This document shows positions 28,286 to 58,612 of a stretch of 64,000 bases of DNA, piece after piece; the first letter of the stretch is position 1, and every line of letters begins with the position of its first letter. Source of the stretch: an uncultured Eggerthellaceae bacterium (GTDB lineage: Bacteria; Actinomycetota; Coriobacteriia; Coriobacteriales; Eggerthellaceae); the NCBI GenBank assembly GCA_958452575.1, contig CAUDUM010000007.1, forward strand, positions 87,127 to 151,126, read 5' to 3'. The position numbers and the translations under genes were made by a program. The notes beneath the pieces are model-generated. The model was not told the origin of the DNA. It saw only the letters and a list, made by a program, of their open reading frames with translations, and did not search any database.

Positions 28286-29095
28286 CTAGATGCCGAAAGA
28301 CAGCCCGTCTGAGGCGGCGCGCACGCGGCCGTCGTATTGGCGCAGGAACTCCTCCAGCTCGCTCAGCGTGATGGGCTCGGCGTAGTGCATGCACAGATGC
28401 GTGAGGAAGATCGTGCCTGCCTCGAGCTCCAGGCCCTCTTCGATGGTCTCCTGGACGCTGTGATGCTGATCGGTGGGGCAGCTTTTCCAATAAGTGGCGT
28501 CCAGGGCAAGGAAGTCGACGCCGCGCACGCGCTCTGCGGTGGCCTCGGGCAGCTTGCCGGTATCCGAGGCGTAGAACAGGCGCTTGGCCGGCGTTTCGAT
28601 CAGGTACCCGTAGGTGCCGGGCGCATGGTGCACGGGCAGCGCGGTGTAGCGCACGTCATCGATCTCGATCGACTCGTAGGGCATGATCTCGTGCGTGTCC
28701 AGGCAGTACGTCATGTAGTGGTACTCGTGCGCGATGGTTTCGAGCGTGCCGGGGCTGGCATAGGTCGGCAAGGGGGATTTGGTGCGCAGCTGGACCATGT
28801 ACTCGAGCTCCTCCATGCCGCCGATGTGGTCGGAATGCCCGTGCGTCACCAGCAGCCGATCGATCGCGCGCACACCCTCGCGGTTGAGCTGGTGGCGCAC
28901 GTCGGGCGGCGTGTCGATGAGCGTCGTGGGCCCGCCTTCGCCGACCCTTCGCACCATCGCGCCGCAGTCGCCGCGCCGGGCCTGCGGATGCATGCGCGCC
29001 TCTTGGCAGGCGGGGCACTCGCAGAAAAACGCCGGCACGCCGCAACCGGCGCCGGTCCCCATGAACGTGAAAGTGTGGGTGAGGCTCTCTGCCAT
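28286..29095 (-). CDS. MBL-fold hydrolase, PhnP-like
   Basis: Start at MAESLTHTFTFMGTGAGCGVPAFFCECPACQEA, preceded by GAGGAAGGG. THGHSDHIGG metal motif. Confidence 0.7.
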   Translation of the reverse strand: MAESLTHTFTFMGTGAGCGVPAFFCECPACQEARMHPQARRGDCGAMVRRVGEGGPTTLIDTPPDVRHQLNREGVRAIDRLLVTHGHSDHIGGMEELEYMVQLRTKSPLPTYASPGTLETIAHEYHYMTYCLDTHEIMPYESIEIDDVRYTALPVHHAPGTYGYLIETPAKRLFYASDTGKLPEATAERVRGVDFLALDATYWKSCPTDQHHSVQETIEEGLELEAGTIFLTHLCMHYAEPITLSELEEFLRQYDGRVRAASDGLSFGI

Positions 29096-29270
29096 GGCAG
29101 CCCTTCCTCTCGGACCAACGTGGCAGGAGGCGCCCCCCGCTGCCACATTTGAATAACGCGGCAGGGAGCGTCCCCTGCCGCATGCGCTTCGGTTCAATGG
29201 ACGAGTATAGGCGCAAAGCGCTCTCCGCTTCGAATTTTCATCGCAAAACGCTTGCAAGGGTGGTCTGCCC

Positions 29271-29309
29271 TTGACGCAATGGCTATAATCGACTAGCCGA
29301 TTGCGTCAA
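29271..29309. promoter_or_regulatory. inverted repeat TTGACGCAAT-N19-ATTGCGTCAA bracketing a TATAAT hexamer (candidate operator/promoter)
   Basis: Read directly, with TATAAT at 29284-29289. Lies in the 577-nt divergent region between the MBL gene and the Mo-enzyme operon. Confidence 0.4.
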
Positions 29310-29672
29310 CCATATTCATGTGGAGGATGCGGGGCTTTGCGTACCGAGACGCGCGGGGGCGTGGCTCGGGAACGGGGAGACACATAGCGGAGGCGGTGCC
29401 CCGTCGCCGCGCGAATAATGCGACTCAAAAGGCTGGCCGCGGCGAGCGGTCGGCCTAATGCGGTATTCGGCGCACCTCGTACCGAAAGGTTTACCCGTTC
29501 ATACGATTTAAAGCCCCAAGAGCGATGTGCAAGTTCAGGGCGTTCTATAAACTTGCACCGTTTGCGGGCTGTCTTGAGTCATGGCGGCGGCCCATGCGGC
29601 ATGCGGCCGTGGAAAGACGGCAATGACAATGTAGGTAAAGGCAAGCATGACGAGTAGAAGAGGGGAAGGTAG

Positions 29673-32573
29673 ATGGCGGAGATTTCCAAGGAGTCGCACG
29701 GCCTGAAGGACCTGATGTGTCCCGATATCGTGTCGACCGAAGTCGATGTCAACGCTCCTGGCGTCGAGATGATCAAGTCGCTGTGCTATTTCTGCCACGC
29801 GAACTGCGGTGTTCTCGCATACGTCAAAGACGGTGACGTCATCAAGATCAAAGGCGATCCCGACTACAGCAACAAGGGAGGCCTGTGCTGCCGCGGCACC
29901 AGCGCGCTGCTGCACGTCAATCATCCCGCCCGCGTCAACCACGTGCTCAAGCGCGTCGGCGAGAAGGGCGAGGGCAAGTGGGAGCAGATCCCGTACGATC
30001 AGGGCATCCAGGAGGTCGCTGACCGCCTGAACCAGATCAAGGCCGAAAGCGGCGCCGAGGCTGTCGCCTCCGCCGGCGGCACCACGCGCACCGACGACTT
30101 CGCCCGTCGTCGTTTCCTGAACCTGTTCGGCACCCCGAACGGCTTCCACAACGCGCTGCTGTGCTGGATCCCCACGTTCATGACCGAGACCTGCGTGTGC
30201 GGTTGGTCCCCGTTCGAGACCGACCTGGGCGCTGCGAAGAGCCTGATCCTGTGGGGCATGAACCCCGGCGCCTCCTCGCTGCCCAGCATGCGCGGCTACA
30301 CCGACCTGCAGATGCAGACCGGCCTGAAGATCATCATGGTCGATCCTCGCTACTCCGAGACTGCCTCCAAGGCCGACCTGTGGCTGCCGCTGCGTCCCGG
30401 CTCCGACTCCGCTCTGGCGCTGGCGCTGCTGCACACCATCATCTTCGAGGGCCTGTACGACTGGGAGTTCGTCGAGCAGTGGTGCGACGGCTTCGAGGAG
30501 CTGCAGGATCGCATGGTCGACTACAGCCCCGAGTGGGCATCGACCATCACCTGGCTTGATCCCGAGCAGATCCGCGCCGCCGCGCGCCTGTACGCGATGA
30601 ACAAGCCCGGCTGCATCCAGTGGGGCTGCACGTGGGATCAGATGGGCCGCGCGTCCACCACGGTCGCCCATGCGCTCACGCTCATCCGCGCCATCTGCGG
30701 CAACCTGGACGTCCCCGGCGGCGACGGCATGCCCGGCCCGGCCATCAACTACCTCACCGACGAGGAGATGGAACTCAACGAGCGCCTGCCCGAGGAGCAG
30801 AAGGCCAAGCAGATCGGCTCCAACAAGTTCAAGCTGACCTCCTGGCCCGGCTACCAGCTGATCTCCGACAACGCCAAGCGCACGTGGGGCAAGACCCTGC
30901 CTGCCGAGTGGTTCTGCGAGGCCCACGGCCCCAGCGTCTTCAAGGCGATTCTCACCGGCGATCCGTACCAGGTGCGCGCGCTCATCGTGAACGCCACCAA
31001 CCCGGTGAACTCCTACGGCGACTCCAAGATGACGCTCGCCGCCCTTAAGAAGGTCGAGTTCCTGGTCACCGTCGAGTACTGGATCACCCCGACCGCGCTG
31101 CTGTCCGATTACGTGTTCCCGGCTGCCGGCGCGCTCGAGCGTCCGATCATCGTCACCCACTACGGCGCCACCGACTCCGTCATGGGCGGCCGCCGCGCCA
31201 TCCAGCCCAAGTACGACCGCCACGACGACTTCACCTTCTGGCGCAAGCTGGGCCTGGCCTGCGGTCAGTCCGAGGAGGATTGGCCTTGGGAGACCATCGA
31301 GGAGGCCTACTCCGCGATCATCGCGCCGCTGGGTCTGCCGATCTCCGGTTGGGACGAGTTCGTCGACAACTTCCGCATGTACTATCCGCCGCTGCACCAG
31401 AGCAAGTTCATCAACAACAACGGCTTCTGGACCCCGACGGGCAAGATCGAGTGCAACTCGACCATCATGCGCCAGCTGGGCTACGACGGCATGCCGTCCT
31501 ACACGGGCACTGCCGAGAACCCCGAGGACACGCCGGAGCTGCTGGAGGAGTACCCGCTGGTGCTCACCACGGGCGGCGGCTTCATGCCGTTCCATCACTC
31601 CGAGCACTTCAACATGCCCAACATCCGCTACCTGTATCCGGATCCGTACTTCTACATCAACCCGGAGAAGGCCGCCGAGCTCAACATCGTCCGCGGCGAC
31701 TGGTGCTGGATCGAGACCCGTCGCGGCCGCATCAAGATGCGCGCCAGCGTGGAGCCCATCGTCGATCCTCGCGTGATCATGTGCCCGCGCGGCTGGTGGT
31801 TCCCCGAGCGCGACGGTTCCGCCGACCTGGACAACCCGTTCGGCTGCCTGGAGTCCAACGTCAACACGCTGACCTCCGTCGATGACGAGGACTGCGATCC
31901 CATGGGCGGCTCCTGGTCCAACCGCGGCATGCTGTGCAAGGTCTACAAGTGCGGCGACTTCGACAACGTCTTCAAGCCTGAAGACGCCCAGTTCTCCATC
32001 CCCAGCTCCGCCAAGGAGCCCGGCATCCATGTGATGCCCAGCGAGCAGAAGCTGTGCAAGGAGAAGATCCCGTTCGAGATGCCCGAGTGCACCAAGGAAG
32101 TTCCCGAGGGCTACTACTGGGTGTGGCAGAACGACGGCATCTACCAGAAGGACACGCACTTCAAGCTGGACGACTCCGGCTGGCTGATTGACCCCAAGAC
32201 CAAGGCCTACATCGACCCGCACACCGGTTGGCGCTACGACGGCAACGAGCAGTGCCTGGTCGACGACGCCACGGGCAAGAAGTACACGATGGAGCGCGTC
32301 GAGATCACCTACGTCGCCGGCGTGCGCACCTATCCCGGCCAGGACGCGCCGTACGCGGTGCCCGAGCAGCTGACCTGGGATCAGGAGAAGGGCTACGCCG
32401 TCTTGGGCGACAAGCCGTACGTGTACGATCCCAACAGCGGCTGGATGCTCGATCCCGCTACGGGCGCCTACCATGACGCCTACTACGGCTGGCTGTACGA
32501 CGCCGCGGGCAACTGCCTGGTGGACGAGGCGACGGGCAACCGTTACGACATGTCGTACCAGCCCCTTCAGTAA
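29673..32573 (+). CDS. molybdopterin (bis-PGD) oxidoreductase catalytic subunit, signal-less, with a C-terminal extension of about 200 aa
   Basis: N-terminal CxxCxxxC...C [4Fe-4S] motif (CYFCHANC...CCRG), FGTPN...LLCW region, and molybdopterin and dinucleotide-binding domain-like blocks (GDWCWIETRRGRI). A TAG stop immediately precedes the ATG. Confidence 0.85.
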   Translation: MAEISKESHGLKDLMCPDIVSTEVDVNAPGVEMIKSLCYFCHANCGVLAYVKDGDVIKIKGDPDYSNKGGLCCRGTSALLHVNHPARVNHVLKRVGEKGEGKWEQIPYDQGIQEVADRLNQIKAESGAEAVASAGGTTRTDDFARRRFLNLFGTPNGFHNALLCWIPTFMTETCVCGWSPFETDLGAAKSLILWGMNPGASSLPSMRGYTDLQMQTGLKIIMVDPRYSETASKADLWLPLRPGSDSALALALLHTIIFEGLYDWEFVEQWCDGFEELQDRMVDYSPEWASTITWLDPEQIRAAARLYAMNKPGCIQWGCTWDQMGRASTTVAHALTLIRAICGNLDVPGGDGMPGPAINYLTDEEMELNERLPEEQKAKQIGSNKFKLTSWPGYQLISDNAKRTWGKTLPAEWFCEAHGPSVFKAILTGDPYQVRALIVNATNPVNSYGDSKMTLAALKKVEFLVTVEYWITPTALLSDYVFPAAGALERPIIVTHYGATDSVMGGRRAIQPKYDRHDDFTFWRKLGLACGQSEEDWPWETIEEAYSAIIAPLGLPISGWDEFVDNFRMYYPPLHQSKFINNNGFWTPTGKIECNSTIMRQLGYDGMPSYTGTAENPEDTPELLEEYPLVLTTGGGFMPFHHSEHFNMPNIRYLYPDPYFYINPEKAAELNIVRGDWCWIETRRGRIKMRASVEPIVDPRVIMCPRGWWFPERDGSADLDNPFGCLESNVNTLTSVDDEDCDPMGGSWSNRGMLCKVYKCGDFDNVFKPEDAQFSIPSSAKEPGIHVMPSEQKLCKEKIPFEMPECTKEVPEGYYWVWQNDGIYQKDTHFKLDDSGWLIDPKTKAYIDPHTGWRYDGNEQCLVDDATGKKYTMERVEITYVAGVRTYPGQDAPYAVPEQLTWDQEKGYAVLGDKPYVYDPNSGWMLDPATGAYHDAYYGWLYDAAGNCLVDEATGNRYDMSYQPLQ

Positions 32574-32603
32574 GTAAGCATCGAGTAGGAGAAAGGATAG
32601 GAA

Positions 32604-33182
32604 ATGACTCGTTACGTTATGGTCATCGACCAGCGTCGTTGCATCGGCTGCCACTCCTGCACGGTTGCTTGCCGTGTGTGGAACAAGCTCCCGCTTGACA
32701 TCATTTACAACCCGGTCGTCTCCGAGGGCGTTCAGGGCACCTGGCCCAACGTCCATCGCAACTGGACGCCGCTTTTGTGCATGCACTGCGAGAACCCCGA
32801 GTGCGTGCCCTGCTGCCCCTCCGGCGCAAGCCAGCAGGACGACGACGGCACCGTTTGGGTGGATCCCAAGAAGTGCCTGTCCTGCAAGGTGTGCGTGAAC
32901 GCGTGCCCCTACGGCATGCGCGACGCCTCCCACCTGGAGAACCGCATGCATCGCTTCGTGCGCAAGTGCACGTTCTGCCGTGACAAGCGCCAGCTCGATC
33001 CGGATGCCCAGCCCTACTGCGTGGAGACCTGCCACCAGAAGGCCCGTATCTTCGGCGATCTGGACGATCCGAACAGCGAAGTGTCCAAGCTCATCGGCTC
33101 GGTCAAGACCGACCGCATCTTCACCGAGTTCGGCACCGATCCTCAGATCTACTACATTCCGTGTTTGGGAGGTCAGGCATAA
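32604..33182 (+). CDS. 4x[4Fe-4S] ferredoxin-type electron-transfer subunit (DmsB/PsrB/NrfC-like)
   Basis: Four Cys groups: CIGCHSCTVAC, CMHCENPECVPCCP, CLSCKVCVNACP and CTFC...CVETC. Confidence 0.85.
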   Translation: MTRYVMVIDQRRCIGCHSCTVACRVWNKLPLDIIYNPVVSEGVQGTWPNVHRNWTPLLCMHCENPECVPCCPSGASQQDDDGTVWVDPKKCLSCKVCVNACPYGMRDASHLENRMHRFVRKCTFCRDKRQLDPDAQPYCVETCHQKARIFGDLDDPNSEVSKLIGSVKTDRIFTEFGTDPQIYYIPCLGGQA

Positions 33183-34162
33183 TGAAACATCATTACTGGG
33201 AACCGCCTATCGCCCTGTACCTGTTCCTAGGCGGTCTGGCTGGCGGCATTCTGTTCCTGTCTGCCATTTTCAACAGCTTCGTGATCCCGGGCTATGGCGA
33301 GATCTTCGCCTTCCCGGTGCTCATCGCGCTGATCTGCGTGGCTATCGGCTGCGTGTTCCTGATCATCGACCTGGGCCAGCCCGGCGTGTTCTGGCGCGTG
33401 TGGACCACGGCGACCTCCATCATCAAGTGGGGCGCCACCTTCCTGGTCATCGCCGCCGTGTTCGCGCTGCTGTACCTGCTCGCGTTCCTCGATCAGGCGT
33501 GGCCGATCTTCGGCGGGCTTTCGCAGTTCCTGCTGCCTGCCGCTGACTTCTTCCTGATCGTCGCGGGCTTCTTCGGCCTGTGCATCATGATGTACACCGG
33601 CATCATGCTGTCGACCCTGAAGGCGCATGCGTTCTGGGCCACCCCTGCTCTGCCCGTGCTGTTCACGATCTCCGCTATCTCCACCGGCTGCGCCGCCATC
33701 GTGCTGTCCATCGGCGGTTGGCCGGCTCAGATCACGCTCGAGAGCCTGCTGGCTGCAGCGCTCGTGCTGGAGATCCTGCACATCGTCGACATCGTGCTGG
33801 TCATCGCCGAGCTCATCGTGCTGCTGACCATGGTCCTGTCCTTCGCGGGCGCCGGCAACGTGACCGCCAAGAAGGCCGCGATGCGCTGGATCAAGGGCAA
33901 TTACGCCCTGCTGTTCTGGGTGGGCATGGTCTTCCTGGGCCTGCTCGTCCCGCTGATGATGTACATCGGCGGCGGCCACTCCGCTGCTGCTCAGATCGTG
34001 GCTCCCGTGCTGGTTCTGTGCGGCGGCTGCCTGCTGCGCTTCATGGTCGTCAACACCGACGATCGTGCGGACATCCCGGGCGAGATCCGCTACTACAACC
34101 GTGTTGCCAAGCCTGACGCCGAGTTCGTCAAGAAGTGGGAATACGGCAAGAACCTCTTCTAA
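33182..34162 (+). CDS. NrfD/PsrC-type polytopic membrane anchor
   Basis: ATG overlaps the preceding stop (TAATG). MKHHYWEPPIALYLFLGGLAGG N-terminus, about 8 TM. Confidence 0.75.
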   Translation: MKHHYWEPPIALYLFLGGLAGGILFLSAIFNSFVIPGYGEIFAFPVLIALICVAIGCVFLIIDLGQPGVFWRVWTTATSIIKWGATFLVIAAVFALLYLLAFLDQAWPIFGGLSQFLLPAADFFLIVAGFFGLCIMMYTGIMLSTLKAHAFWATPALPVLFTISAISTGCAAIVLSIGGWPAQITLESLLAAALVLEILHIVDIVLVIAELIVLLTMVLSFAGAGNVTAKKAAMRWIKGNYALLFWVGMVFLGLLVPLMMYIGGGHSAAAQIVAPVLVLCGGCLLRFMVVNTDDRADIPGEIRYYNRVAKPDAEFVKKWEYGKNLF

Positions 34163-34166
34163 TTTC

Positions 34167-34253
34167 GTTCCGCCGGCCTGACGGCCGGCGGAACTGGCCG
34201 CCGCTGCGACCGCCTGAGGCACCTCAGGCGCTCTCGCTGACGTTACGAACGAC
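34167..34253 (+). repeat. intergenic repeat family 1, copy 2 (short form)
   Basis: Hairpin GTTCCGCCGGCC-TGAC-GGCCGGCGGAAC, GCCGCCGCTGC, and 3' anchor CTCGCTGACGTTACGAACGAC (34233-34253). Confidence 0.75.
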
Positions 34254-34312
34254 AAGGGAGGCAATGGCGGTCGAGGGTGATAATTTCGGGGGTGCGACCT
34301 TGCGGTCGGGCC

Positions 34313-34388
34313 CCCGTTTGTTTAGGCTCGCCGTCCTGGTGGGATGCTGCGGCACCCGGCGGCAGGACGGCGGCCCTAGGCAAACGGG
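34313..34388 (+). promoter_or_regulatory. 26-bp imperfect hairpin abutting the RBS of the CCG-protein gene (candidate RNA leader structure)
   Basis: cccgtttgtttaggctcgccgtcctg pairs with caggacggcggccctaggcaaacggg. Three positions are G-U on the + strand RNA only. Confidence 0.5.
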
Positions 34389-34403
34389 AAAAGGGGGTTG
34401 GCA

Positions 34404-35360
34404 ATGTCTGGATACGTGTACGACGACGCGCTGACAGGGAGCCGAGTCACCTGCGGCTATCCAGAACTTTCGGCGTGGGTGGAGCCCGCGCGCGCATCCG
34501 AGGGGGATGCCGCTCCGGTCAAGTCGTTGTATTTCCCGGGGTGCTCGTTCATCAACTACTCGCTGCCGCTTGTCCAGGCGGTGTACGATCTGCTAAAGGG
34601 CGCCGGTCGCGTGGATGGCGTGTCGCTGGTGTGCTGCGGCAAGATCCTGCAGTACGAGCCCAATGGCAAGGAGGTTCGCGCGGCGCACGAAGCGCAGCTG
34701 CGCGAGCACATCCTGAGCACCGGAGTCGAGCGCATCATTACGGCTTGCCCTAATTGCGTGAAGGCGCTGCGCGCCTTGCTGGCGGCCGATGAGCGCACCG
34801 CCGACGTTGAGGTCGTGCCGCTGCCGGTGGAGTTGGCGGAGATGGGCTACCGCATCGATGCCGAGGTGGCTCGCAAGATGGTCGCCACCGCCGTGCCGGA
34901 GTCCGACGCCGCGGCCGGTGGGCTGCCTCATTTCGCCCCGCACGATTCCTGTCCCGATCGCGATACGGGCGAGTTCGCTGACGGCGTTCGCGCTTTGCTT
35001 CCCGAAGGAACGATCCGCGAGGCCGAGCACAACCGACACCGGTCGTTCTGCTGCGGCAGCCTGCTGCGCGCGGCGGGCAAACCGGAGCGCGCATCGGAGC
35101 AGTCGCGCAAGCATGGCCAAGAGGCGGTCGCCGCACAGGCGGATGCCATCGTGACCGCCTGCATGAGCTGCACGTTCCTGCTGTCAAAGGAGCAGCGTGA
35201 CGTTCCGGTGTTCCACTATCTTGAACTGCTGTACGACTGGCGCATCGATTGGGACAACACCCCGCCTTATATGACGCTGCGTTTCCTGTTCGACGAGCCC
35301 GCGCCTTCGGAGGAGTCGCGCCGGACGTTCGTCGGCCTGGATTCCGCCAACGCTGAGTAG
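34404..35360 (+). CDS. (Fe-S) oxidoreductase with two CCG (Cys-rich) domains, HdrB/LutA/GlpC-like
   Basis: PGCSF...VCCGKIL...TACPNC and HDSCPD...SFCCGSL...TACMSC. ATG at 34404 after AAAAGGGGG. Confidence 0.75.
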   Translation: MSGYVYDDALTGSRVTCGYPELSAWVEPARASEGDAAPVKSLYFPGCSFINYSLPLVQAVYDLLKGAGRVDGVSLVCCGKILQYEPNGKEVRAAHEAQLREHILSTGVERIITACPNCVKALRALLAADERTADVEVVPLPVELAEMGYRIDAEVARKMVATAVPESDAAAGGLPHFAPHDSCPDRDTGEFADGVRALLPEGTIREAEHNRHRSFCCGSLLRAAGKPERASEQSRKHGQEAVAAQADAIVTACMSCTFLLSKEQRDVPVFHYLELLYDWRIDWDNTPPYMTLRFLFDEPAPSEESRRTFVGLDSANAE

Positions 35361-35381
35361 AATCGACGGAGCCTCGCGACA

Positions 35382-37619
35382 ATGCAAGAGATCAAACCTA
35401 CGAACTGCCACTACTGCGGATACTGCTGCGCCTTTTTGGCGACGGTGGAGGACGGCCGCGTGATCGACCTTCAGCCTGATCCCACGCGCTATCCGTACGA
35501 CGATCGCATCCTTGCCGGATGCCGTCGCTGGCGCATGAACCTGGCTGCCCTCGACGGGGACGACCGCGTCAACCACCCGCTGCGTCGCGTTGGCGAGCGC
35601 GGCGCCAATCAGTGGGAACGTGTGAGCTGGGATGAGGCGCTCGACGATATCGCGATGCGTTTGCGCGAGCTGGCGGATCAGCATGGCCCCGAAACGCTTG
35701 CCAGCGCCATCGGCGGGCCGCACGCATCGTTTTGGCCGCTCCATCGCTTCATGAACCTGTTCGGCAGCCCCAACAACATGGGTATCGGCCAGATCTGCTG
35801 GAACCCGCGCATCTGGATGGATGCGCTTACGTTCGGATGGACGGTCGAGGCCGACATCACACCCGGTTTGACGGAGTGCCTGTTCATATGGGGCACCAAT
35901 CCCGCGCAATCGGACAACTCGGCGTTCTGGCGCGCCATCATCCAATTCTCCAAGACCGAGGCGTCGCTCGTCGTCATCGACCCGCGCCGCACGCAGGTCG
36001 CGGCGCTGGCGGATATCTGGCTGCCGGTCCGCCCCGGCACCGATTGCACGCTCGCACTGGCCTTCATGCACGTGATCATCGAGGAGGGGTTGGTCGACCG
36101 GGCGTTCCTCGATGAGTGGTGCCATGGGTTCGACGAGCTCGCCGATCACGTGAAGCCCTACACTCCGGCGCGCGCGGCTCGCGAGTGCGGCGTTTCCGAG
36201 GACGACATCGTGCGCGCGGCGCGTCTGTTCGGTGGCGCGCGGGCGGCAGCGCTCGTGTCGGGACGCGGCATCGACCAGGTGGGCGTGAACGTTGCGCCCA
36301 CGCACCGCGCGATCTGCTGTTTGCGTGCCATCACGGGCAACGTCGACAAGCAGGGCGCCTGCGTTTTGGCGGAAGCGAGCGACTTCATCCCCGAGGTCGA
36401 TATGGAGATGACCGACGCGCTGGCTCCCGAGCATCGCGCCCGCTGTCTCAATACGCAGCGCACGCCGCTGCAGTGTTATGAGGGGTACGCGAAGGCGCGC
36501 GAGCTCACCGAGAAGCTGGGGCGCCGTCTGCCGGAGCGCTACCTGACCTCCGCTGCACCCGATCTGGTGCTTCGCGCGATGGAGACGGGCGAGCCGTATC
36601 CGGTGCGCGCGCTCATCGTCAACGCCACCAACCCGCTTATCACTTACGCCGACACCCACCGCGTCTTCAAGGCGTTCATGGGGCTTGACCTTATCGTGGT
36701 GCTCGACTACTACATGACCCCCACGGCGAGCATCGCCGACTATGTTCTGCCGATCGCCGGCGCCATCGAACGCCCGATCTTCCAGGTGCACGGCGGCGTG
36801 GCGAACAACGGCTACGGCGGTCCCGCGGCGGTCGAGCCGTATTACGAACGTCGCACCGATTACGAGGTGTTCCGCGAGTTGGGCCTGCGCCTGGGGCAGG
36901 CCGATGCCTGGCCTCAGGAGACGCTGGAGGATGCGTTTGCCGCGCAGCTGGCCCCTACGGGGATGGATTGGGAAACCTATTGCCAGATCGGCCTGTACTA
37001 TCAACCGCCCGCGTACGAGAAGCACCTGATCACCGGACCGGACGGCGTACCTCGGGGCTTCGCCACCACCACGGGCAAGATCGAGCTTGCCAGCGAGTTT
37101 CTGCCGCAAGTCGGCGGGACGCGGCTCCCCGAGCCGGGTGGGCATCTCTCACTGTGCTCGCCGGAGCTGATCGAGCGCGTCCAGGCGGAAGGCGGAGCGC
37201 ATCTGCGCATGATCACGGGTTCGCGCAAGCAGCCGTACAACGCGTCGATGTACTTCAACAATCCCGAGTTCCGCGCCAAATCGCCTATGCCGGTCGCCGA
37301 GGTCAGCGAGGCGACGGCAGCGCGTCTGGGTCTGGCGGCGGGCGACACGGTGGAGATCGCCACCGACCAGGGCAGCGCGCGGTTCGAGCTGGCGACGGCG
37401 CGGATGCGCGATGATCTGGTCAACGTCGATTACGGTTGGTGGCATCCCGAATGGGAGCCGGGCGCGCCCGATTTCGGCGGCATGTGGGAGTCCAATGTGA
37501 ACTGTCTGACCACCTGCGAGCTGGCTGAGCCGATGATCGGCACCTGGAGCTACAATGACATCGATTGCGTCATCAAGCGCGTCGAAGAGCCGATCAGCTG
37601 GCAGAAAGATCGCCAGTAG
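35382..37619 (+). CDS. second molybdopterin (bis-PGD) oxidoreductase, signal-less, 745 aa
   Basis: CHYCGYCC...C N-terminal Fe-S motif, FGSPNNMGIGQICW, WGTNPAQS, and C-terminal GDTVEIATDQGSARF beta-barrel domain. Confidence 0.85.
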   Translation: MQEIKPTNCHYCGYCCAFLATVEDGRVIDLQPDPTRYPYDDRILAGCRRWRMNLAALDGDDRVNHPLRRVGERGANQWERVSWDEALDDIAMRLRELADQHGPETLASAIGGPHASFWPLHRFMNLFGSPNNMGIGQICWNPRIWMDALTFGWTVEADITPGLTECLFIWGTNPAQSDNSAFWRAIIQFSKTEASLVVIDPRRTQVAALADIWLPVRPGTDCTLALAFMHVIIEEGLVDRAFLDEWCHGFDELADHVKPYTPARAARECGVSEDDIVRAARLFGGARAAALVSGRGIDQVGVNVAPTHRAICCLRAITGNVDKQGACVLAEASDFIPEVDMEMTDALAPEHRARCLNTQRTPLQCYEGYAKARELTEKLGRRLPERYLTSAAPDLVLRAMETGEPYPVRALIVNATNPLITYADTHRVFKAFMGLDLIVVLDYYMTPTASIADYVLPIAGAIERPIFQVHGGVANNGYGGPAAVEPYYERRTDYEVFRELGLRLGQADAWPQETLEDAFAAQLAPTGMDWETYCQIGLYYQPPAYEKHLITGPDGVPRGFATTTGKIELASEFLPQVGGTRLPEPGGHLSLCSPELIERVQAEGGAHLRMITGSRKQPYNASMYFNNPEFRAKSPMPVAEVSEATAARLGLAAGDTVEIATDQGSARFELATARMRDDLVNVDYGWWHPEWEPGAPDFGGMWESNVNCLTTCELAEPMIGTWSYNDIDCVIKRVEEPISWQKDRQ

Positions 37620-37699
37620 AACTGTTAAGAGACACCGGCGACGAACGCGCGGCGCCCGTGCGGGGTCGCCGCGCCGATAGACGAGGAGGAACAAGCCGT

Positions 37700-38578
37700 A
37701 TGGCGGAAAAGAAGCAAGCGTTGCTGCTGTTCAGCAAGCCCCCGGTTTCGGGCAGGGTCAAGACCCGCCTGACCATCGAACATGGCGGGTTCATGACGCC
37801 CGACGAGGCGGCCGATTTCTACAAGCGCTGCCTGTACGATGTGTCCGAGCTGTGCATGCATTCGCTCATCGAGATGCAGCGCGCCAATGACGCCGCGGTC
37901 GCGGCGGATCCGTCCGTGGACAAGATCACCTACGATTTCTTCGTGTCGACGCCCGCTGCCGACATCGACATCATGAAGGCGACCTACGACGAGATCGGCC
38001 CATGGCCCATGGAGATCCACTACCTCACCGACAAGGGTGCCACGTTCGACGATCACTTCGATTACGCTTTCAAGCAGATCTTCGACGAGGGCTACGAGCA
38101 CATCGTATCGGTCGGCGGCGACATCCCCACGCTGCCCAAGTCCCACATCAAGCAGGCGTTCCAGTGGCTCGACTACTTCCAGGCCTGCGGCACGCCGGGC
38201 TTCGTGCAGGCGCCGTGCCAGGAATGCGGCACGTCGCTGGTGGGTTTCAGCTACAACACGCCCATCAACCATCAGGGCATCTATTACAACATGGACGGCC
38301 GTCCCGCGCTCGACGGCTACGTCGAGAAGCTGAAGGCGGCCAACATCCCGTCTGCGTACTTCTCGCCGGTTGCCGATATCGACGAGCGTACCGACCTGGC
38401 CCACGCCATCTCCTGCATGCGCGCGATCGCCGAAGCGGGCAAGTACCAAAACGACGTGTTTGTTCCCCAGCGCGTGCTCGATTGGGTCGACTGGTATGGC
38501 ATCACCGTGTCCACCCCTCCCAACGAGGAGCACGACCCGCGCCAGTACCTCGACGAGGTTGAGGACGAGGAAGAGTAG
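37700..38578 (+). CDS. DUF2064-like (TIGR04282-type) nucleotide-diphospho-sugar-transferase-fold protein
   Basis: ALLLFSKPPVSGRVKTRL N-terminal motif. RBS GAGGAGGA. Confidence 0.6.
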   Translation: MAEKKQALLLFSKPPVSGRVKTRLTIEHGGFMTPDEAADFYKRCLYDVSELCMHSLIEMQRANDAAVAADPSVDKITYDFFVSTPAADIDIMKATYDEIGPWPMEIHYLTDKGATFDDHFDYAFKQIFDEGYEHIVSVGGDIPTLPKSHIKQAFQWLDYFQACGTPGFVQAPCQECGTSLVGFSYNTPINHQGIYYNMDGRPALDGYVEKLKAANIPSAYFSPVADIDERTDLAHAISCMRAIAEAGKYQNDVFVPQRVLDWVDWYGITVSTPPNEEHDPRQYLDEVEDEEE

Positions 38579-38739
38579 TTCCGTTGGCCTACCGGCCAAC
38601 GGAACGAGCCGACGCTGCGGGGAGCCCCCGCACCGAATCTTCGCGCGATCCTGCAGGCTTACGTACCAAAGTGCGCTTCGCCTGCACGATCCCATGAATC
38701 TTCGGCACGGGGGCTCCCCTCGCTGACGTTACGAACGAC
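38578..38739 (+). repeat. intergenic repeat family 1, copy 3
   Basis: Hairpin GTTCCGTTGGCC-TACC-GGCCAACGGAAC, GCCGACGCTGC (38608-38618), TACGTACCAAAGTGCGCTTCGCCT, and CTCGCTGACGTTACGAACGAC (38719-38739). Confidence 0.75.
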
Positions 38740-38741
38740 CA

Positions 38742-40142
38742 GTGAGAAAAGAGATTGTCTTGGCTATTCCAAACAACAACGATTCCGTGAAGGTGGCGCA
38801 CGTTGCCCAGGAGGGCAGCGCGCCGCGCGTTGCCGGGCATCGGCACCTGCACAACACGATCGGCCTGTGCCCGGAGTGCCTGCGCGAGCTGAAGGCCGAC
38901 GTCTACGCCGACGACGAGGGCACCGTGTGGATGGAACGCACCTGCCCCGACCACGGGCCGCTCACCACGCGCGTGTGGCCCGACGCAGACCATTACCAGT
39001 GGCTGCTGTCCGAGGCGTTCCCCAAGACCAAGCCGCAAAACACCATCCCGGCCGGCGCGCCGTGCCCCTTCGGCTGCGGCACGTGCTCGCGCCACGAGCG
39101 TCGCGGCACGCTGCTCGAGATCGAAGTGACCAAAAGCTGCAATCTGCATTGCCCCGTGTGTTTCATGAGCTCCGAGAACGGCGATGACGATCCCACGATG
39201 GATGAGATCGACGCCATGTACGACGTCATCGCCAACGCTGTGGGCACCGACGGCGCCGTTCAGCTGACCGGCGGCGAGCCGACCTGCCGCAAGGATCTGC
39301 CCGAGATCATCTACCATGGCCGCGAGAAGGGCTTCTGGGGCATCGAGGTGAACACGAACGGCCTGGTCATCGCCTCGCGTCCGGGATATCTGGAGGATCT
39401 GGTGGGCGCGGGCCTGACCGGCGTGTACCTGTCGTTCGACGGGCTGACCGGCGATGTGTACGAAGGTACGTGCGGGCGCGACATCCTCGATATCAAGCTG
39501 CGCGTCATCGAGCGCTGCCGCGAGGTGGGCATCCAGTGCGTGCTGTCGGTCGCCGTGGTCGCGGGTCTCAACGACGGTCAGCTGGGCGATCTTCTGCGCT
39601 TCAGCTTGGAGAATTCCGATGTGGTCGCCGGTCTGGCGCTGCAGCCCGCGTTCGTGTCCGGCCGCTTCGAGGCCGAGCGCGCGATGCAGCTGACGGCGGG
39701 CGATGTCATCTTCAAGCTGGCCGAGCAGTCCGACGGGCTCATCGAGCCGCGCGACATCTGGCCGCTCGGCTGCTCCAACCCGTTGTGCGACACCGGCGTG
39801 TTTTTGGTGCGCACCGACGAGGCCGTGCATAAGAGCGGGTTTGTTCCGGCGACGCAGCTGCTCACGCCCGAGGAATACCGCGAAGGCTACAGTCCCGACA
39901 GTCCCCAGGGCTCGGTGTTCCTGGACATCCTGTCCAAACGCGGCGTCAAGGTGAAGGACGGTTTGTCCGTCATCATCATGAACTACATGGACGCCTGGTC
40001 GATGGACGTGCAACGCCTGCGCGAGTGTTCGATGATGGTGACCGTCCCCGACGGCCGCGCCATCCCGTTCTGCTCGTACCACTTGACCGACGCCGACGGC
40101 CGCCGCGTGTATCCGCCCTGGTGCAAGGAAGAGCTGCGTTAA
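38742..40142 (+). CDS. radical SAM enzyme with N-terminal zinc ribbon (COG1964-like architecture)
   Basis: GLCPECL...TCPDHG zinc ribbon, CNLHCPVC (Cx3Cx2C) and a C-terminal IMNYMDAWSMD...PFCSYH block. The exact start codon is uncertain because there is no clear SD. Confidence 0.8.
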   Translation: MRKEIVLAIPNNNDSVKVAHVAQEGSAPRVAGHRHLHNTIGLCPECLRELKADVYADDEGTVWMERTCPDHGPLTTRVWPDADHYQWLLSEAFPKTKPQNTIPAGAPCPFGCGTCSRHERRGTLLEIEVTKSCNLHCPVCFMSSENGDDDPTMDEIDAMYDVIANAVGTDGAVQLTGGEPTCRKDLPEIIYHGREKGFWGIEVNTNGLVIASRPGYLEDLVGAGLTGVYLSFDGLTGDVYEGTCGRDILDIKLRVIERCREVGIQCVLSVAVVAGLNDGQLGDLLRFSLENSDVVAGLALQPAFVSGRFEAERAMQLTAGDVIFKLAEQSDGLIEPRDIWPLGCSNPLCDTGVFLVRTDEAVHKSGFVPATQLLTPEEYREGYSPDSPQGSVFLDILSKRGVKVKDGLSVIIMNYMDAWSMDVQRLRECSMMVTVPDGRAIPFCSYHLTDADGRRVYPPWCKEELR

Positions 40143-40151
40143 TCGTGCGGG

Positions 40152-40271
40152 CGCGGAGCGGAAGGGGCGGGGCTCCGTGCTCAAACAGGTCCTGAGCTCG
40201 CACGAAACGCCCACTGGGCGTTTCGGCTCGTGCGGATACTGCGCGCGGAGCCCCGCCCCTTCCGCTCCGCG
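40152..40271. repeat. palindromic element family 2, copy A
   Basis: 25-bp perfect outer stem (40152-40176 with 40247-40271) enclosing a 70-nt core that is shared, inverted, with 60918-60993. Confidence 0.85.
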
Positions 40272-40408
40272 GCGAGATTATCTTGCTCAGGGACGGGGGT
40301 GTTCGCGCTTTGCGCGAATTGCGGAGGGCCGATTTTGCGCGTCTCTTTCTTATAAGATATGGTCTACTATGCATGAAGCAAGAAGAGTGACCAAGACGAG
40401 AGGTTTAC

Positions 40409-41383
40409 ATGGCTGACTATAGGATTCTTCATGACGACGCCCGTTGCGTGAAGTGCGGGTTGTGCGTGGCGTTTTGTCCATGCAACGTGTTGGAGATGAA
40501 CGACGAGGGGTTCCCGTACGGGGCGCATCCCGATCAGTGCGTCGGGTGCCAGACATGCTCGGGCAACTGCCCTCAGCGCGCGCTGACGATCGAGGCTACG
40601 GGCGACGCCGTTTATGATCCGTTCGCGGACGAGCCGCGCGCCGAGCCTCTGGACAAGGATCGCCGCGCCGAGCTGGCGGAATACCAGCGCGTCATCATGG
40701 ACAAGCTCGGCCTGCGCTGGCAGCCGGTTGCCGTGAGCCTGGTCGAGGCGGACGAGCTGCTGCCCGATGTGCCGATGCCTCCGGAGAACCTGCGCTTCTG
40801 CCAGGCTATGATGGCGGCCCGCCGCGGTGCGAGCATCCTCATGCCTCCCAACAAGCATTCCTGCCCCGATGGCACGTCCATCTTCGGCATGACCGGCGTT
40901 CCCGAGAAGCTTGCCACTGGCGAGATCTACGTGCTGTTCCACAAGCTCGACACCGCCGAAGCGGCTGCGCAGATGGTTGCCGAGCGCCCCACGCTGCCGC
41001 CGCATAGCCGCCGCGCCACCTACGTTGCGCCGCTGAACAAGACGGTGCGTGAGCCGGAGGTGATCGTGTTCACCGGCACGCCCGAGCAGATGATGTGGCT
41101 GTGCATGTCGATGAGCTACTACACCGGCCATCGCTTCGACTTCCATGCGTCGGGCTACAACTCCATGTGCGTGGAGGCAGTGCTCATCCCGATGCGCGAC
41201 AACGAGCCCAACATCACGTTCGGCTGCTACGGCTGCCGCGCGGCAAGCGACATCGGCGAGGACATGATGTTCATGGGCATTCCCACCGACAAGCTGCCCA
41301 CCGTGGTGCGCGGTCTGACCGAGCTTGCGAAAAAGGCGATCCCGCACTCCCGCATGAAGATCTACGTCCCCCCGATCATGTAG
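40409..41383 (+). CDS. 2x[4Fe-4S] ferredoxin domain fused to a DUF169-like domain
   Basis: CVKCGLCVAFCP and CVGCQTCSGNCP, followed by about 260 aa with LRFCQAMMAARRG...HSCPDG (DUF169/COG2043-like). Confidence 0.65.
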   Translation: MADYRILHDDARCVKCGLCVAFCPCNVLEMNDEGFPYGAHPDQCVGCQTCSGNCPQRALTIEATGDAVYDPFADEPRAEPLDKDRRAELAEYQRVIMDKLGLRWQPVAVSLVEADELLPDVPMPPENLRFCQAMMAARRGASILMPPNKHSCPDGTSIFGMTGVPEKLATGEIYVLFHKLDTAEAAAQMVAERPTLPPHSRRATYVAPLNKTVREPEVIVFTGTPEQMMWLCMSMSYYTGHRFDFHASGYNSMCVEAVLIPMRDNEPNITFGCYGCRAASDIGEDMMFMGIPTDKLPTVVRGLTELAKKAIPHSRMKIYVPPIM

Positions 41384-41392
41384 GGAGTCGGG

Positions 41393-41827
41393 ATGTCCGA
41401 TCTGTTCACGCTGCGTGATGCATCGGCGGATGATCTGCCCACGCTCAACGCGTACAACTACAACGAGGGGATGGATGCCTTTTCCTCCGCTGATAACATC
41501 CGCGTCGCGGTGAATGCGGCGGGGGAGATTGTGGGCTACCTGCGCCTGGCATTCAGCCCCGAGGGCGTCGCGCATGTGAACCCCGTGGTCACCTATCCTA
41601 CTTGGCGGGGCTATGGTGTGGGACGAGCGCTCATGGACGAGGCGCTCGAGCGTCATGGCGAGCTGCGGTTCGTGGCGCGCGGCGCATCGGTGGGCTTCTA
41701 CGAGAAGCTGGGCTACCGCGTCATTCCGTGGGAGGACGTGTGCTTGGATGTGGCCGAGGATTGCCGCATCTGCACGCTGGTGGACGAGTGCAAGCCCCAG
41801 CCGATGGGGAAGAAGCTGGGAGAGTAG
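41393..41827 (+). CDS. GNAT family N-acetyltransferase
   Basis: VTYPTWRGYGVGRALMDEALE acetyl-CoA binding motif. Confidence 0.75.
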   Translation: MSDLFTLRDASADDLPTLNAYNYNEGMDAFSSADNIRVAVNAAGEIVGYLRLAFSPEGVAHVNPVVTYPTWRGYGVGRALMDEALERHGELRFVARGASVGFYEKLGYRVIPWEDVCLDVAEDCRICTLVDECKPQPMGKKLGE

Positions 41828-41863
41828 ACCGGCGTCGATCGCGCCATTGCTCTTGTGGCAAGA

Positions 41864-41901
41864 TGGGGTCGGTTTCGCTGATGCGAAGCCGACCCCTGTT
41901 T
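41864..41901. terminator. hairpin plus T-run between convergent GNAT and flavin reductase genes
   Basis: ggggtcggtttcgc-tgat-gcgaagccgacccc followed by tgtttt. Confidence 0.65.
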
Positions 41902-41906
41902 TGTCG

Positions 41907-42488
41907 TCAGTCTAGCTTTACCGTGGCGAACAGATCGTGCTGCACGCACAGCAGAGCGTCGGTGGCGTCGATGCGGCTGCGCTCATCCGATCCTGCGCGC
42001 GACCAAGCGCGATCCACATATCCGATCACCAGCATGTGATCGCCTGCGGGGTCGAGGTGATCGACGCGGCATTCGAACGCGGTCAGCGCACCTGCCAGAG
42101 CGGGCAGCGGCTCACGCGCGCTCTGTTCGGCGGCAGGCAGGAGCCGCCAGTCGACCAACGCGCTTTTGTCGATGACGTTGCCGGTCTTGTTACCGCACGT
42201 CTCGACGGTTGCGACCGCGTCATCCAAATTCGCATCGAGGACGCTGATCGTAAAGCGGCGTGTCGCTCGCACAAGGCCGAACGTATGCGATTTGGTGCGC
42301 AGCGCGAAAGCGACCATGGGCGGAGTGTGCGAGACGGGCGTCGCCCAAGCGACGGTGGCGAATCCGACCTCATCCCCGTCGCGTGCGCCGATGACGGCGA
42401 TCGGCCGCGGCCCCAGCGAAGCGGCGATATCGCGCCCCTCGATAAGGCGCATCGACAGGTCGAGATCCCGTTTGGCCTTCGCGTCCAT
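41907..42488 (-). CDS. flavin reductase-like (FMN-binding split-barrel) protein
   Basis: Start MDAKAK after AAGGAGAAG. IAVIGARDGDEVGFATVAWATPVSHTPPMVAFAL. Confidence 0.7.
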   Translation of the reverse strand: MDAKAKRDLDLSMRLIEGRDIAASLGPRPIAVIGARDGDEVGFATVAWATPVSHTPPMVAFALRTKSHTFGLVRATRRFTISVLDANLDDAVATVETCGNKTGNVIDKSALVDWRLLPAAEQSAREPLPALAGALTAFECRVDHLDPAGDHMLVIGYVDRAWSRAGSDERSRIDATDALLCVQHDLFATVKLD

Positions 42489-42621
42489 AGCTTCTCCTTG
42501 CTGCCCTATCTTGAAAAACCGCGCGTTTCTTCCCGGAACAGAGGCACTATCGGCGCCGATTCGGGAAGAAGCGCGCAAAGTTTGGTGCTCGTGCGTGCGA
42601 TGTCGCCGGAAACGGCGGCTC

Positions 42622-43059
42622 TTACTCTTCGTGCGAGCAGATCGGAGCGTCAGGCAGGTCGATGCCGAGCGCCTGGGCCGCTTGACCGCGCAGCTCCTCA
42701 AGCGTCAACTCGTAGCAGGCCAGCGCATCGATCCAGCGGCGCAGGCAGTGGCGCCCCTTGTCGGTCAGCGTGAACAGACGCTTGGCGGAACCCTCCTCGG
42801 GGGTCTCCCACTCGGAGGTCACCAGTTCGGCTTCCTCCATGCGCTTAAGCGCGCGGTAGATGCCGGTGGCGTCGGGCTTTTTGCCGCCGAACATGGGTGA
42901 ATGGGCTGCTTGCTGCACGATGATGTAGCCGTGCATGGGTTTGTCGTTGGCGGCAAGCAGCGTGAGAATGGTGGGCTGGGACAGGCGGTTGAGCGATTTG
43001 CCCAGCTCGGCGCATTCTTTCAGATCTTCATCGGACTTCGGATGGCAAGAGCTCCACAT
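42622..43059 (-). CDS. PadR family transcriptional regulator
   Basis: PMHGYIIVQQ...GIYRALKRMEEAELVTSEWE...KRLFTLTDKGR. Confidence 0.8.
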   Translation of the reverse strand: MWSSCHPKSDEDLKECAELGKSLNRLSQPTILTLLAANDKPMHGYIIVQQAAHSPMFGGKKPDATGIYRALKRMEEAELVTSEWETPEEGSAKRLFTLTDKGRHCLRRWIDALACYELTLEELRGQAAQALGIDLPDAPICSHEE

Positions 43060-43311
43060 AACGATTCCCCCTCGGGACACAGCGCGCTTCGCTGCTCGCG
43101 GCATCGTGGCGATGCGTAGGCGGCGAAAGCGCGGCAATTCGGTCGGATAGCACGATGACTATCATCCCATAACTATTATCCTAACGCCAATAGTTTCTCG
43201 GAATAATAGAATGTTCCCAAGAATAGTGGAACGTCCCCATGCGGCTGAAGCGCCTCAGGTCGCAAGACGCCCGTTGCGGAGCGCCTGCGCAAGGCGGGAT
43301 TTCCGCCGCAC

Positions 43312-58609: not shown

Positions 58610-58612
58610 CGC

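Follow-up and report, generated by a model that had tools for sequence, protein, structure and literature searches.

Gene content of the locus

The stretch analysed here, hereafter the window, comprises 64,000 nucleotides (nt) of contig CAUDUM010000007.1 (assembly GCA_958452575.1, positions 87,127 to 151,126) from an uncultured Eggerthellaceae bacterium; its GC content is about 64% and the closest locus, at 98% protein identity, is that of Candidatus Aphodovivens avicola. A first-pass annotation, made from the letters alone, had singled out four successive genes at 37700-41827, coding for a DUF2064 protein, a radical SAM enzyme, a ferredoxin-DUF169 fusion (Fd-DUF169) and a GNAT protein, as a quartet that might tailor a cofactor or substrate of two molybdoenzymes encoded directly upstream. 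We find all four open reading frames (ORFs) on the forward strand with the boundaries it had assigned and with every motif it had quoted, and Pfam profile scores agree with its family assignment of each protein and identify the two upstream proteins, here Mo1 and Mo2, as molybdopterin oxidoreductases. The idea of a stand-alone quartet, on the other hand, is not borne out: the four genes are co-inherited, partly translationally coupled or fused components of a two-molybdoenzyme system, and the conserved unit to which they belong comprises about eleven genes:

28286..29257, reverse strand: PhnP-like metallohydrolase of the metallo-β-lactamase (MBL) fold (Pfam Lactamase_B_2, 110 bits), with an N-terminal GVPxFFCxCxxC motif
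29673..32573, forward strand: Mo1, catalytic subunit of bis-molybdopterin guanine dinucleotide (bis-MGD) type, a molybdo/tungsto-enzyme of 966 residues (Pfam; PDB 2E7Z)
32604..33182, forward strand: PsrB/DsrO-like four-cluster Fe-S subunit (Pfam Fer4_11)
33161..34162, forward strand: NrfD/PsrC-type membrane, quinone-facing subunit (Pfam NrfD, 114 bits)
34398..35360, forward strand: HdrB/HdrD-like CCG protein (two copies of Pfam CCG)
35382..37619, forward strand: Mo2, second, soluble-type bis-MGD enzyme, 745 residues (Pfam; PDB 2E7Z)
37700..38578, forward strand: DUF2064 protein (Pfam DUF2064, 48.5 bits)
38742..40142, forward strand: GDGT-MAS/Tes-like radical SAM protein (Pfam Zn_ribbon_HMPTM, 56 bits; Radical_SAM, 76 bits)
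40409..41383, forward strand: Fd-DUF169, a 2x[4Fe-4S] ferredoxin domain joined to DUF169 (189 bits)
41393..41827, forward strand: GNAT protein (Pfam Acetyltransf_1, 7 and 10)
41907..42488, reverse strand: flavin-reductase-like (flavoredoxin-type) protein (Pfam Flavin_Reduct, 99 bits)

The MBL and flavin-reductase-like genes thus lie on the window's opposite strand, one at each end of the unit. The MBL gene is the divergently transcribed first gene of the unit here and the first gene of the operon in three of the related loci compared below (L034, L035 and L037); its product scores 115 bits against the NCBIfam PhnP profile (cut-off 272) and 119 bits against that for GPMC MBL proteins (cut-off 360). 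The flavin-reductase-like gene, whose likely start methionine is at 42488 in an ORF that extends to 42701, stands immediately after Fd-DUF169 in L034, L035, L037 and L038.

Conservation and arrangement of the unit

The window proteins were compared by tblastn with three sets of related loci, namely 31 from genomes found through the radical SAM protein, five (L034, L035, L037 and L038 among them) found through exact Fd-DUF169 homologues, and 80 from metagenomes found through an Fd-DUF169 alignment; two loci from the radical SAM scan, L032 and L033, hold a distant radical SAM gene alone, at 27% identity. Occupancy was counted only where the flanks sufficed, in 21 metagenome loci with Fd-DUF169 as anchor and in 22 genome loci with the radical SAM gene as anchor, and shows that the arrangement is no product of chance. 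The radical SAM gene occurs in all 21 metagenome loci and Fd-DUF169 in 20 of the 22 genome loci. The corresponding metagenome and genome counts are 21/21 and 20/22 for Mo2, 21/21 and 18/22 for the Fe-S subunit, 20/21 and 18/22 for NrfD, 19/21 and 18/22 for Mo1, 19/21 and 20/22 for the CCG protein, 18/21 (detectable copies) and 19/22 for GNAT, 17/21 and 20/22 for DUF2064, and 16/21 and 8/22 for the flavin-reductase-like gene. A divergent GNAT copy is present in L114, and its relatives L115, L117 and L118 have a copy at 81-92% identity. All-against-all clustering of flanking ORFs was mostly uninformative, shadow ORFs being common in this high-GC DNA.

In Eggerthellaceae the genes run Mo1-FeS-NrfD-CCG-Mo2-DUF2064-rSAM-FdDUF169-GNAT (rSAM denoting the radical SAM gene), and this syntenic block is found in Gordonibacter, Paraeggerthella, Adlercreutzia, Enterorhabdus and Parvibacter, with single block proteins also matching sequences named Raoultibacter and Ellagibacter; Gordonibacter urolithinfaciens is among the carriers. 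Outside the family the commonest order is MBL-Mo1-FeS-NrfD-(Fer4-CCG)-rSAM-Mo2-DUF2064-FdDUF169-FlavRed-GNAT; Desulfuromusa kysingii and two other genomes (L034, L035 and L037) have the MBL-first order, and environmental Coriobacteriia have a third order. The reordered unit also occurs in Syntrophorhabdales, in Desulfuromonas (Desulfuromonadales), in other deltaproteobacteria and in Anaerolineales/Chloroflexia. That gene content is kept while gene order changes is strong evidence for one functional unit. Furthermore, co-localization in at least five distant lineages supports the functional tie to both upstream molybdoenzymes that had been suspected from the window alone; absence of the association from other genomes, which would have spoken against it, is clearly not what is seen. 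The DUF2064, radical SAM and Fd-DUF169 proteins are conserved to about the same degree as the catalytic subunits, at 75-81% identity across Eggerthellaceae genera and 47-50% against a Chloroflexia locus. The Gordonibacter 21-dehydroxylation cluster was considered as an identity for the unit and rejected, in that no connection emerged from the papers retrieved and that bacteria from sediment have the unit too.

The physical coupling of the genes is informative as well. L034, L035 and L037 have a 4-bp overlap between the CCG and radical SAM genes and an 8-bp one between the DUF2064 and Fd-DUF169 genes, and in an Eggerthellales metagenome-assembled genome (MAG; L023, 4644-6446) a single 600-residue protein is a GNAT-Fer4-CCG-CCG fusion. 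Where the unit is split, the radical SAM gene remains with Mo1-FeS-NrfD (L025 and L027), and DUF2064 and Fd-DUF169 follow Mo2 (L023, L030 and L031). Taken together, the overlaps, the fusion and the split loci point to two arms: a putative membrane arm defined by MBL, Mo1, the Fe-S subunit, NrfD, CCG and radical SAM proteins, and a putative soluble arm of Mo2, DUF2064, Fd-DUF169, the flavoredoxin-like protein and GNAT.

Sequence features of the components

The best solved structure for both molybdoenzymes is acetylene hydratase (2E7Z; E 3e-108 for Mo1 and 5e-96 for Mo2), and the two are about 34% identical to each other. In the alignment the tungsten-ligand Cys141 of acetylene hydratase is kept as C164 in Mo1 and C139 in Mo2; in place of its catalytic Asp13, beside the second cluster cysteine, Mo1 has His and Mo2 has Gly, and hence neither is an acetylene hydratase. 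Similarity to the arsenate reductase ArrA is weak (86-110 bits against a cut-off of 1600). No twin-arginine (Tat) motif was found at the N-termini of Mo1 or the Fe-S subunit in any lineage or orthologue inspected, and the Mo1 complex is therefore predicted to face the cytoplasm; Mo2 likewise has no export signal. The catalytic subunit of Dadh-type catechol dehydroxylases, by contrast, is exported via Tat. These gut enzymes (Dadh, Hcdh, Cadh and Cldh of Eggerthella and Gordonibacter) were placed in the acetylene hydratase clade by Maini Rekdal et al. 2020, so that Mo1 and Mo2 share a bis-MGD clade with them, a likeness at clade level that runs through acetylene hydratase only; Mo1 also shares their build from three subunits (catalytic, 4Fe-4S and membrane-anchoring). 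The accessory proteins are entirely unlike: a helicase-like protein, a TorD-like chaperone and membrane ferredoxins in the dehydroxylase clusters, as against radical SAM, DUF2064, DUF169, GNAT, CCG, MBL and flavoredoxin proteins here. The dehydroxylase clusters are, moreover, strain-variable, whereas this unit is conserved across whole lineages and phyla. As an observation on Mo1 itself, about 200 residues at its C-terminus (residues ~770-966; window 32000-32573) form an extension of aromatic-rich repeats, GW..DP.TG..YD, that score as Pfam OCRE at 58.6 bits; Mo1 orthologues outside Eggerthellaceae end at about 750 residues and match only about 77% of the query.

Adjacent to Mo1, the PsrB-like Fe-S subunit (143-158 bits against the NrfC, TtrB and DsrO profiles, in every case below the cut-off), the NrfD-like subunit and the HdrD-like CCG protein form the same trio as in modules of the HmcBCF, DsrOPK and HdrDE type. 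Both five-cysteine motifs of the CCG protein (C49...C79-C80-G81...C117xxC120 and C185...C218-C219-G220...C255xxC258) are intact and invariant in 21 orthologues, and most of the distant orthologues add an N-terminal Fer4 domain, as in HdrD. In Hdr-type enzymes the CCG motifs constitute the thiol/disulfide active site. The trio differs from those modules in being attached to a molybdoenzyme, in an Fe-S subunit devoid of an export signal, in a CCG protein coupled to a radical SAM protein and GNAT-fused in one lineage, and in having no cytochrome subunits in the unit.

The radical SAM protein, whose start codon is uncertain within about 50 nt, contains CPFGCGTC in addition to the motifs CPEC...TCPDHG, CNLHCPVC, MNYMDAW and PFCSYH noticed at the outset. 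Its residues comprise a rubredoxin-type site (C43xxC46...C68xxH71), an N-terminal auxiliary cluster site (C108x3C112xxC115 with H118), the radical SAM cluster site (C133x3C137xxC140) and a C-terminal cluster region (C349, C429, C444 and M413). These positions are near-invariant in 29 sequences and all four metal centres of GDGT-MAS are kept, M413 aligning with the labile Met439 of that enzyme (7TOL). The first-pass annotation had likened the protein to a family with an archaeal pterin methyltransferase and a tetraether synthase; the likeness to the latter stands, as the tetraether synthase GDGT-MAS is the best solved homologue (7TOL, E 2e-71). The former falls away: both names refer to one protein, MJ0619, the 'HMPTM' pterin methylase of UniProt, whose methylase activity was not corroborated by Lloyd et al. 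2022 (PMC9433317), who reassigned the protein as GDGT-MAS, so that the pterin analogy is without experimental footing and the Pfam name Zn_ribbon_HMPTM is historical. In GDGT-MAS a narrow, hydrophobic tunnel for lipid is accompanied by a rubredoxin-type iron and three [4Fe-4S] clusters (PMC9433317). The window protein shares these types of metal site; it differs in having about 58 fewer residues between core and C-terminal cluster (a segment of ~60 residues, as against ~118 in 7TOL), in being bacterial with no lipid genes nearby, in its strict linkage to Mo enzymes and in forming a separate clade.

Curated profiles likewise place it outside the named families. Against Tes/GDGT-MAS (NF045702) it scores 296.8 bits, below the cut-off of 450, as do six relatives from other loci (285-331 bits). 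Its top curated profile is that of the radical SAM (seleno)protein TrsS (NF045646), at 348 bits against a cut-off of 490, with six orthologues or paralogues from other loci at 327-389 bits. Its length is similar to that of TrsS; selenocysteine read-through as in TrsS is ruled out by the uninterrupted ORF, which ends in TAA at 40142. An unrelated maturase, an identity that had been named as one that would refute the original idea, finds no support either: Pfam detects no SPASM domain, and the best SPASM-type families (StsB, PqqE, AhbC/D and mycofactocin) reach 42-48 bits against cut-offs of 265-650. A role as a substitute for MoaA was also rejected, canonical MoaA and MoaC being encoded at 59677-61581. 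In a representative library of 1.84 billion proteins the clade is compact and has a sharp boundary: its best full-length representative reaches 492 bits (53% identity), the few others above 277 bits are mostly fragments, and the remaining full-length family members lie at or below 277 bits and 42% identity. The 90%-identity clusters of two representatives, P0020 and P0027, also list 341-residue DUF169 and 287-residue DUF2064 proteins, perhaps because some assemblies contain fused or mis-called ORFs, perhaps as an artefact of the clustering. In one Eggerthellaceae MAG (L019, 10010-11467) a 67%-identical paralogue or orthologue stands without any of the other ten genes; ORF translations suggest chorismate synthase and other shikimate-pathway genes as its neighbours, and ribosomal-protein and RNA-polymerase genes further along. 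This protein aligns end to end with the TrsS profile, at only 327 bits.

The DUF2064 gene starts with an ATG preceded by GAGGAGG. Its product scores 48.5 bits against Pfam PF09837 (gathering cut-off 25.8) and carries, at residues 8-23, the motif LLFSKPPVSGRVKTRL that had drawn attention to it. Membership in TIGR04282, as first supposed, does not hold (60.6 bits against a cut-off of 134); CofC is matched at E 0.002 and the PDB entry 3CGX at E 1e-7, and no match to a MobA/NTP_transf_3 profile was found in Pfam or NCBIfam. The core is that of a CofC/MobA-fold nucleotidyltransferase-like protein, sharing with TIGR04282, CofC and MobA proteins the GT-A/MobA-like fold, a K..KTRL loop, a GGDxP motif (G139-G140-D141-x-P143) and the pairing with a radical SAM protein. 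It differs in an additional, invariant C173xxC176 and in a conserved domain at the C-terminus, about 100 residues long and ending in TPPN..HDPR. Further, its radical SAM partner is Tes-like rather than ArsS (TIGR04167), the partner of TIGR04282, which was not found in the window, and it is translationally coupled to Fd-DUF169.

Fd-DUF169 was correctly recognized as a fusion, with two CxxCxxCxxxC motifs (C13-C23 and C44-C54) ahead of a DUF169 domain that scores 189 bits over 206 residues (PF02596, gathering cut-off 27). We know of no function for DUF169; six invariant residues in this part (C131, H150, C152, C254, C273 and C276) suggest a metal site. Two AlphaFold2 models of Fd-DUF169/DUF169 are confident (pLDDT, the per-residue model confidence, of 89 and ~90), and Foldseek found no structural neighbour of the DUF169 domain in the PDB (best E 0.45, TM-score 0.2), the full-length model matching there by its ferredoxin domain only. 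Within Eggerthellaceae the protein has two forms, about 80% and about 55% identical to that of the window (observed from L011, L014, L021, L026, L078, L079, L091 and L093), and beside the variable gene the flanking radical SAM and DUF2064 proteins remain 66-82% identical, a pattern suggestive of replacement of the Fd-DUF169 gene alone. Three loci (L096, L104 and L105) have two Fd-DUF169 matches each. The GNAT protein, finally, is a bona fide member of its superfamily, with an acyl-CoA loop RGYGVGRAL containing the invariant G75, V76, G77 and A79, and has a tail with an invariant C-terminal C124xxC127x5C133-x-P.

Predicted function and genomic context

Based on this shared inheritance and coupling, we propose, with a probability of about 0.4, that the four genes code for obligate, dedicated partner proteins of Mo1 and Mo2 rather than for an independent tailoring pathway. 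Mo1 and Mo2 would catalyze a cytoplasmic redox hydroxylation or dehydroxylation of one small substrate, linked to quinone and to ferredoxin, as in the catechol-dehydroxylase clade, with Fd-DUF169 and the flavoredoxin-like protein perhaps supplying low-potential electrons to Mo2. The DUF2064 protein might be a nucleotidyltransferase acting on some phosphate-bearing cofactor or co-substrate that Mo2 requires. The radical SAM protein, supplied by or acting with the CCG protein, could activate an unactivated C-H bond on a hydrophobic group through a carbon-cluster sulfur intermediate, as in GDGT-MAS, and GNAT might provide a coenzyme A (CoA)-binding site for the CCG thiol/disulfide module. The summed role of the four genes would thus be maturation, electron transfer and co-substrate handling for the Mo1/Mo2 pair. 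The nearest experimental precedent, by analogy, is the accessory-protein need of the catechol dehydroxylases, the closest characterized enzymes: the characterized clusters depend on several accessory proteins of their own and resist production in Escherichia coli (PMC7028382, PMC11887054), where the enzymes are inactive, and they are active in G. urolithinfaciens (PMC11887054), a host that carries the unit. Neighbouring genes for Mo/W handling also favour the proposal: in D. kysingii the unit runs directly into MoaA-MoaE-MoaC-MoeA-ModABC, a molybdenum cofactor (Moco) gene set, FmdE adjoins it in six loci, and DUF364 does so in L034, L035 and L037.

Several points weigh against this proposal. 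The crystal structure of acetylene hydratase holds ordinary bis-MGD, so that a tailored pterin is not demanded. Genes for an APH-type kinase and a nucleoside hydrolase/phosphorylase adjoin the unit in six loci (L035, L037, L038, L078, L093 and L109), and because this recurrent pair resembles 5'-deoxyadenosine salvage it suggests a radical SAM protein that turns over continuously, not one acting in a single maturation event. Accessory and enzyme genes alternate along the unit, whereas chaperone genes usually stand at the end of an operon; cluster-type DUF2064 has no counterpart in the lineage of L114, L115, L117 and L118, where the DUF2064-like gene of L114 is not orthologous (33% identity over 78 residues, no CxxC); and comparison with PDB structures yielded no functional lead for the DUF169 fold. 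Eggerthella lenta, which has active dehydroxylases, was not among the named matches, in searches neither of which was exhaustive. Finally, the only characterized relative of the radical SAM protein acts on membrane lipids and not on enzymes or cofactors (PMC9433317).

The main rival to the partner-protein proposal, possible if doubtful, is that the whole unit constitutes an anaerobic pathway that consumes S-adenosylmethionine (SAM) in making or modifying some free small molecule, for instance a phenolic metabolite or a cofactor of quinone-like or thiol type. The Mo enzymes would then perform oxygen-independent hydroxylation or dehydroxylation, the radical SAM protein would form a C-C or C-S bond, DUF2064 would nucleotidylate a phosphorylated intermediate, the MBL protein would cut a phosphodiester and GNAT would acylate the product. 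The accessory set of radical SAM, CofC-like transferase, PhnP/PqqB-like MBL and GNAT proteins does resemble those of cofactor biosynthesis, the redox hardware goes beyond the needs of one reductase, and stoichiometric SAM use fits biosynthesis and argues against bulk catabolism; neither conserved downstream catabolic enzymes nor a core transporter were found in the loci examined. The neighbourhoods offer further hints in this direction, namely the kinase and nucleosidase genes of the six loci above, an aromatic-acid/H+ symporter family transporter within the unit in L114-L118, and pyrogallol-hydroxytransferase-like alpha/beta pairs adjoining it in five loci from three lineages. The latter lie at L003 ~16510, L005 ~5077, L006 ~15881, L025 1581-5107 and L030 1-3275, among the nearest kin of the window organism as well as at two deltaproteobacterial/Syntrophorhabdales loci, and are not found in the window. 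Against such a pathway, there is no known candidate product, two large respiratory-type Mo enzymes and a quinone anchor are unusual in biosynthesis, the neighbouring genes vary among lineages, and the regulators (a sigma-54/PAS activator in Desulfuromonas, PadR in Eggerthellaceae) equally fit an inducible function.

Direct tailoring of molybdopterin by the four genes, through pterin methylation or an alternative dinucleotide, appears unlikely. It would suit the MobA/CofC fold and KTRL-type phosphate loop of DUF2064, and in D. kysingii the Moco gene set behind the unit shows no MobA, while a MobA-like NTP_transf_3 gene adjoins DUF2064 in L038 and L110. Yet the methylase precedent is uncorroborated (PMC9433317), the window itself encodes canonical MoaA and MoaC, the DUF2064 protein matches no MobA family and the L114-type lineage lacks the cluster-type DUF2064 altogether. 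About 14 kb downstream of the unit, at 55963-61581, the window encodes a ModA-like binding protein, an ABC permease and ATPase, and MoaA and MoaC, so that genes for canonical Moco synthesis and for an ABC transporter of molybdate/tungstate type are near at hand.

Slightly less probable again is that the radical SAM protein is a bacterial Tes-type cross-linker of lipids or of isoprenoid-quinone tails, its proximity to the Mo enzymes reflecting co-function at the membrane or coincidence. GDGT-MAS being the best solved homologue, with metal sites and labile methionine kept, and the membrane anchoring of Mo1 would accord with this, and synthesis of membrane-spanning lipids has been proposed for bacterial Tes homologues (PMC8941075). 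Set against it are the score of 297 bits where the Tes cut-off is 450, the shortened segment before the C-terminal cluster, the absence of lipid-synthesis genes (seen in 0/118 loci), the linkage of the radical SAM gene to Mo2, CCG and DUF169 in 20-21 of 21-22 loci, and the fact that, to date, the enzyme to which membrane-spanning lipids of bacteria have been traced is another one, Mss (PMC13159169).

Three lineages have genes of ArsS type within or beside the unit. In L114, L115, L117 and L118 its two halves are separated by a true ArsS (423 bits, cut-off 300), in a region (L114, 11692-14877) that also holds an ArsM-like methyltransferase and a TIGR04282-like gene in these loci; in L112 (11539-12540) an ArsS-like gene stands between the flavin-reductase-like and GNAT genes, and another lies near the unit in L086. 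Organo-metalloid chemistry on arsenic or selenium, in which DUF2064 and the radical SAM protein would process SAM-derived adenosyl adducts and the Mo enzymes reduce or oxidize the metalloid, could draw on these genes and on the arsenosugar transferases and the selenoprotein family TrsS as the nearest curated family and profile of the two proteins, but it is the least likely of the alternatives, with both scores far below their cut-offs, ArsS in only 6 of ~118 loci and in none of the Eggerthellaceae loci or the window, a non-orthologous DUF2064-like gene in L114 and only weak likeness of Mo1 and Mo2 to ArrA. As none of these neighbourhood clues is universal, none fixes the substrate; phenolics, to which the pyrogallol-hydroxytransferase-like pairs, the aromatic-acid symporter and an adjacent PadR gene point, or ArsS-type chemistry are weak hints to its class.

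All the families involved are individually known, and the novelty would lie in their combination, a complex iron-sulfur molybdoenzyme operon with what appears to be an unprecedented accessory set; no description of this gene combination was found in the searchable literature. Tentatively, and against the odds as we see them, the unit may represent an unrecognized kind of molybdoenzyme machine that makes or recycles a dedicated non-protein partner for paired Mo/W enzymes. Its makers might then be, again as a speculative proposal, the Tes-type radical SAM protein, the CofC-like nucleotidyltransferase, the novel-fold DUF169 Fe-S protein and the CoA-binding GNAT/HdrD module, and what they supply could be a lipid-linked group, a co-substrate with a thiol or a cofactor new to science. 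If true, this would provide the first function for bacterial Tes homologues, for DUF169 and for this DUF2064 clade, three orphan groups that the present analysis ties to one conserved and testable genetic context. Bacterial Tes homologues have been guessed to make the branched tetraether lipids used as paleoclimate proxies; should the Tes-like clade serve molybdoenzymes and not lipids, counting bacterial 'Tes homologues' would overestimate tetraether producers. The gut hosts of the unit, Gordonibacter, Adlercreutzia, Ellagibacter and relatives, transform dietary polyphenols and drugs with enzymes of the same clade that are notoriously hard to express elsewhere, and G. urolithinfaciens is both a carrier of the unit and genetically tractable.

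Beyond the core genes, the locus contains a regulatory gene and several inverted repeats:

42622..43137, reverse strand: PadR-family regulator (Pfam PadR), outside the cross-phylum core
38578-38605: perfect 12-nt hairpin, ahead of the 40-nt-arm repeat
38619..38719: inverted repeat, imperfect (arms of 40 nt, 80% complementarity), shortly before the radical SAM gene
40152..40271: inverted repeat (arms of 32 nt, 94% complementarity) around a perfect hairpin of 11 nt, between the genes for the radical SAM protein and Fd-DUF169

The PadR gene adjoins the cluster in 41 loci, at 57-97% identity, and is a candidate regulator adjoining the unit in Eggerthellaceae. The GC-rich repeats bracket the radical SAM gene and, because related genomes have anything from about 5 to about 480 nt between it and Fd-DUF169, resemble stem-loop elements that were inserted, terminators or sites of RNA processing; the arm sequence of the downstream repeat is found at no other place in the window. 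A riboswitch or other known RNA was rejected, as Rfam gave no match at gathering thresholds over the whole window and only chance-level matches at E up to 1 over 28000-43500. A peptide-derived cofactor, from a ribosomally synthesized and modified peptide or like pyrroloquinoline quinone, was likewise set aside, as the tight or overlapping gene junctions of L035 and L037 leave no conserved small precursor ORF. Elsewhere in the window, at 7110-13909, genes for the hydrogenase maturation proteins HypF and HypD are followed by those for subunits I and II of a cytochrome bd oxidase.

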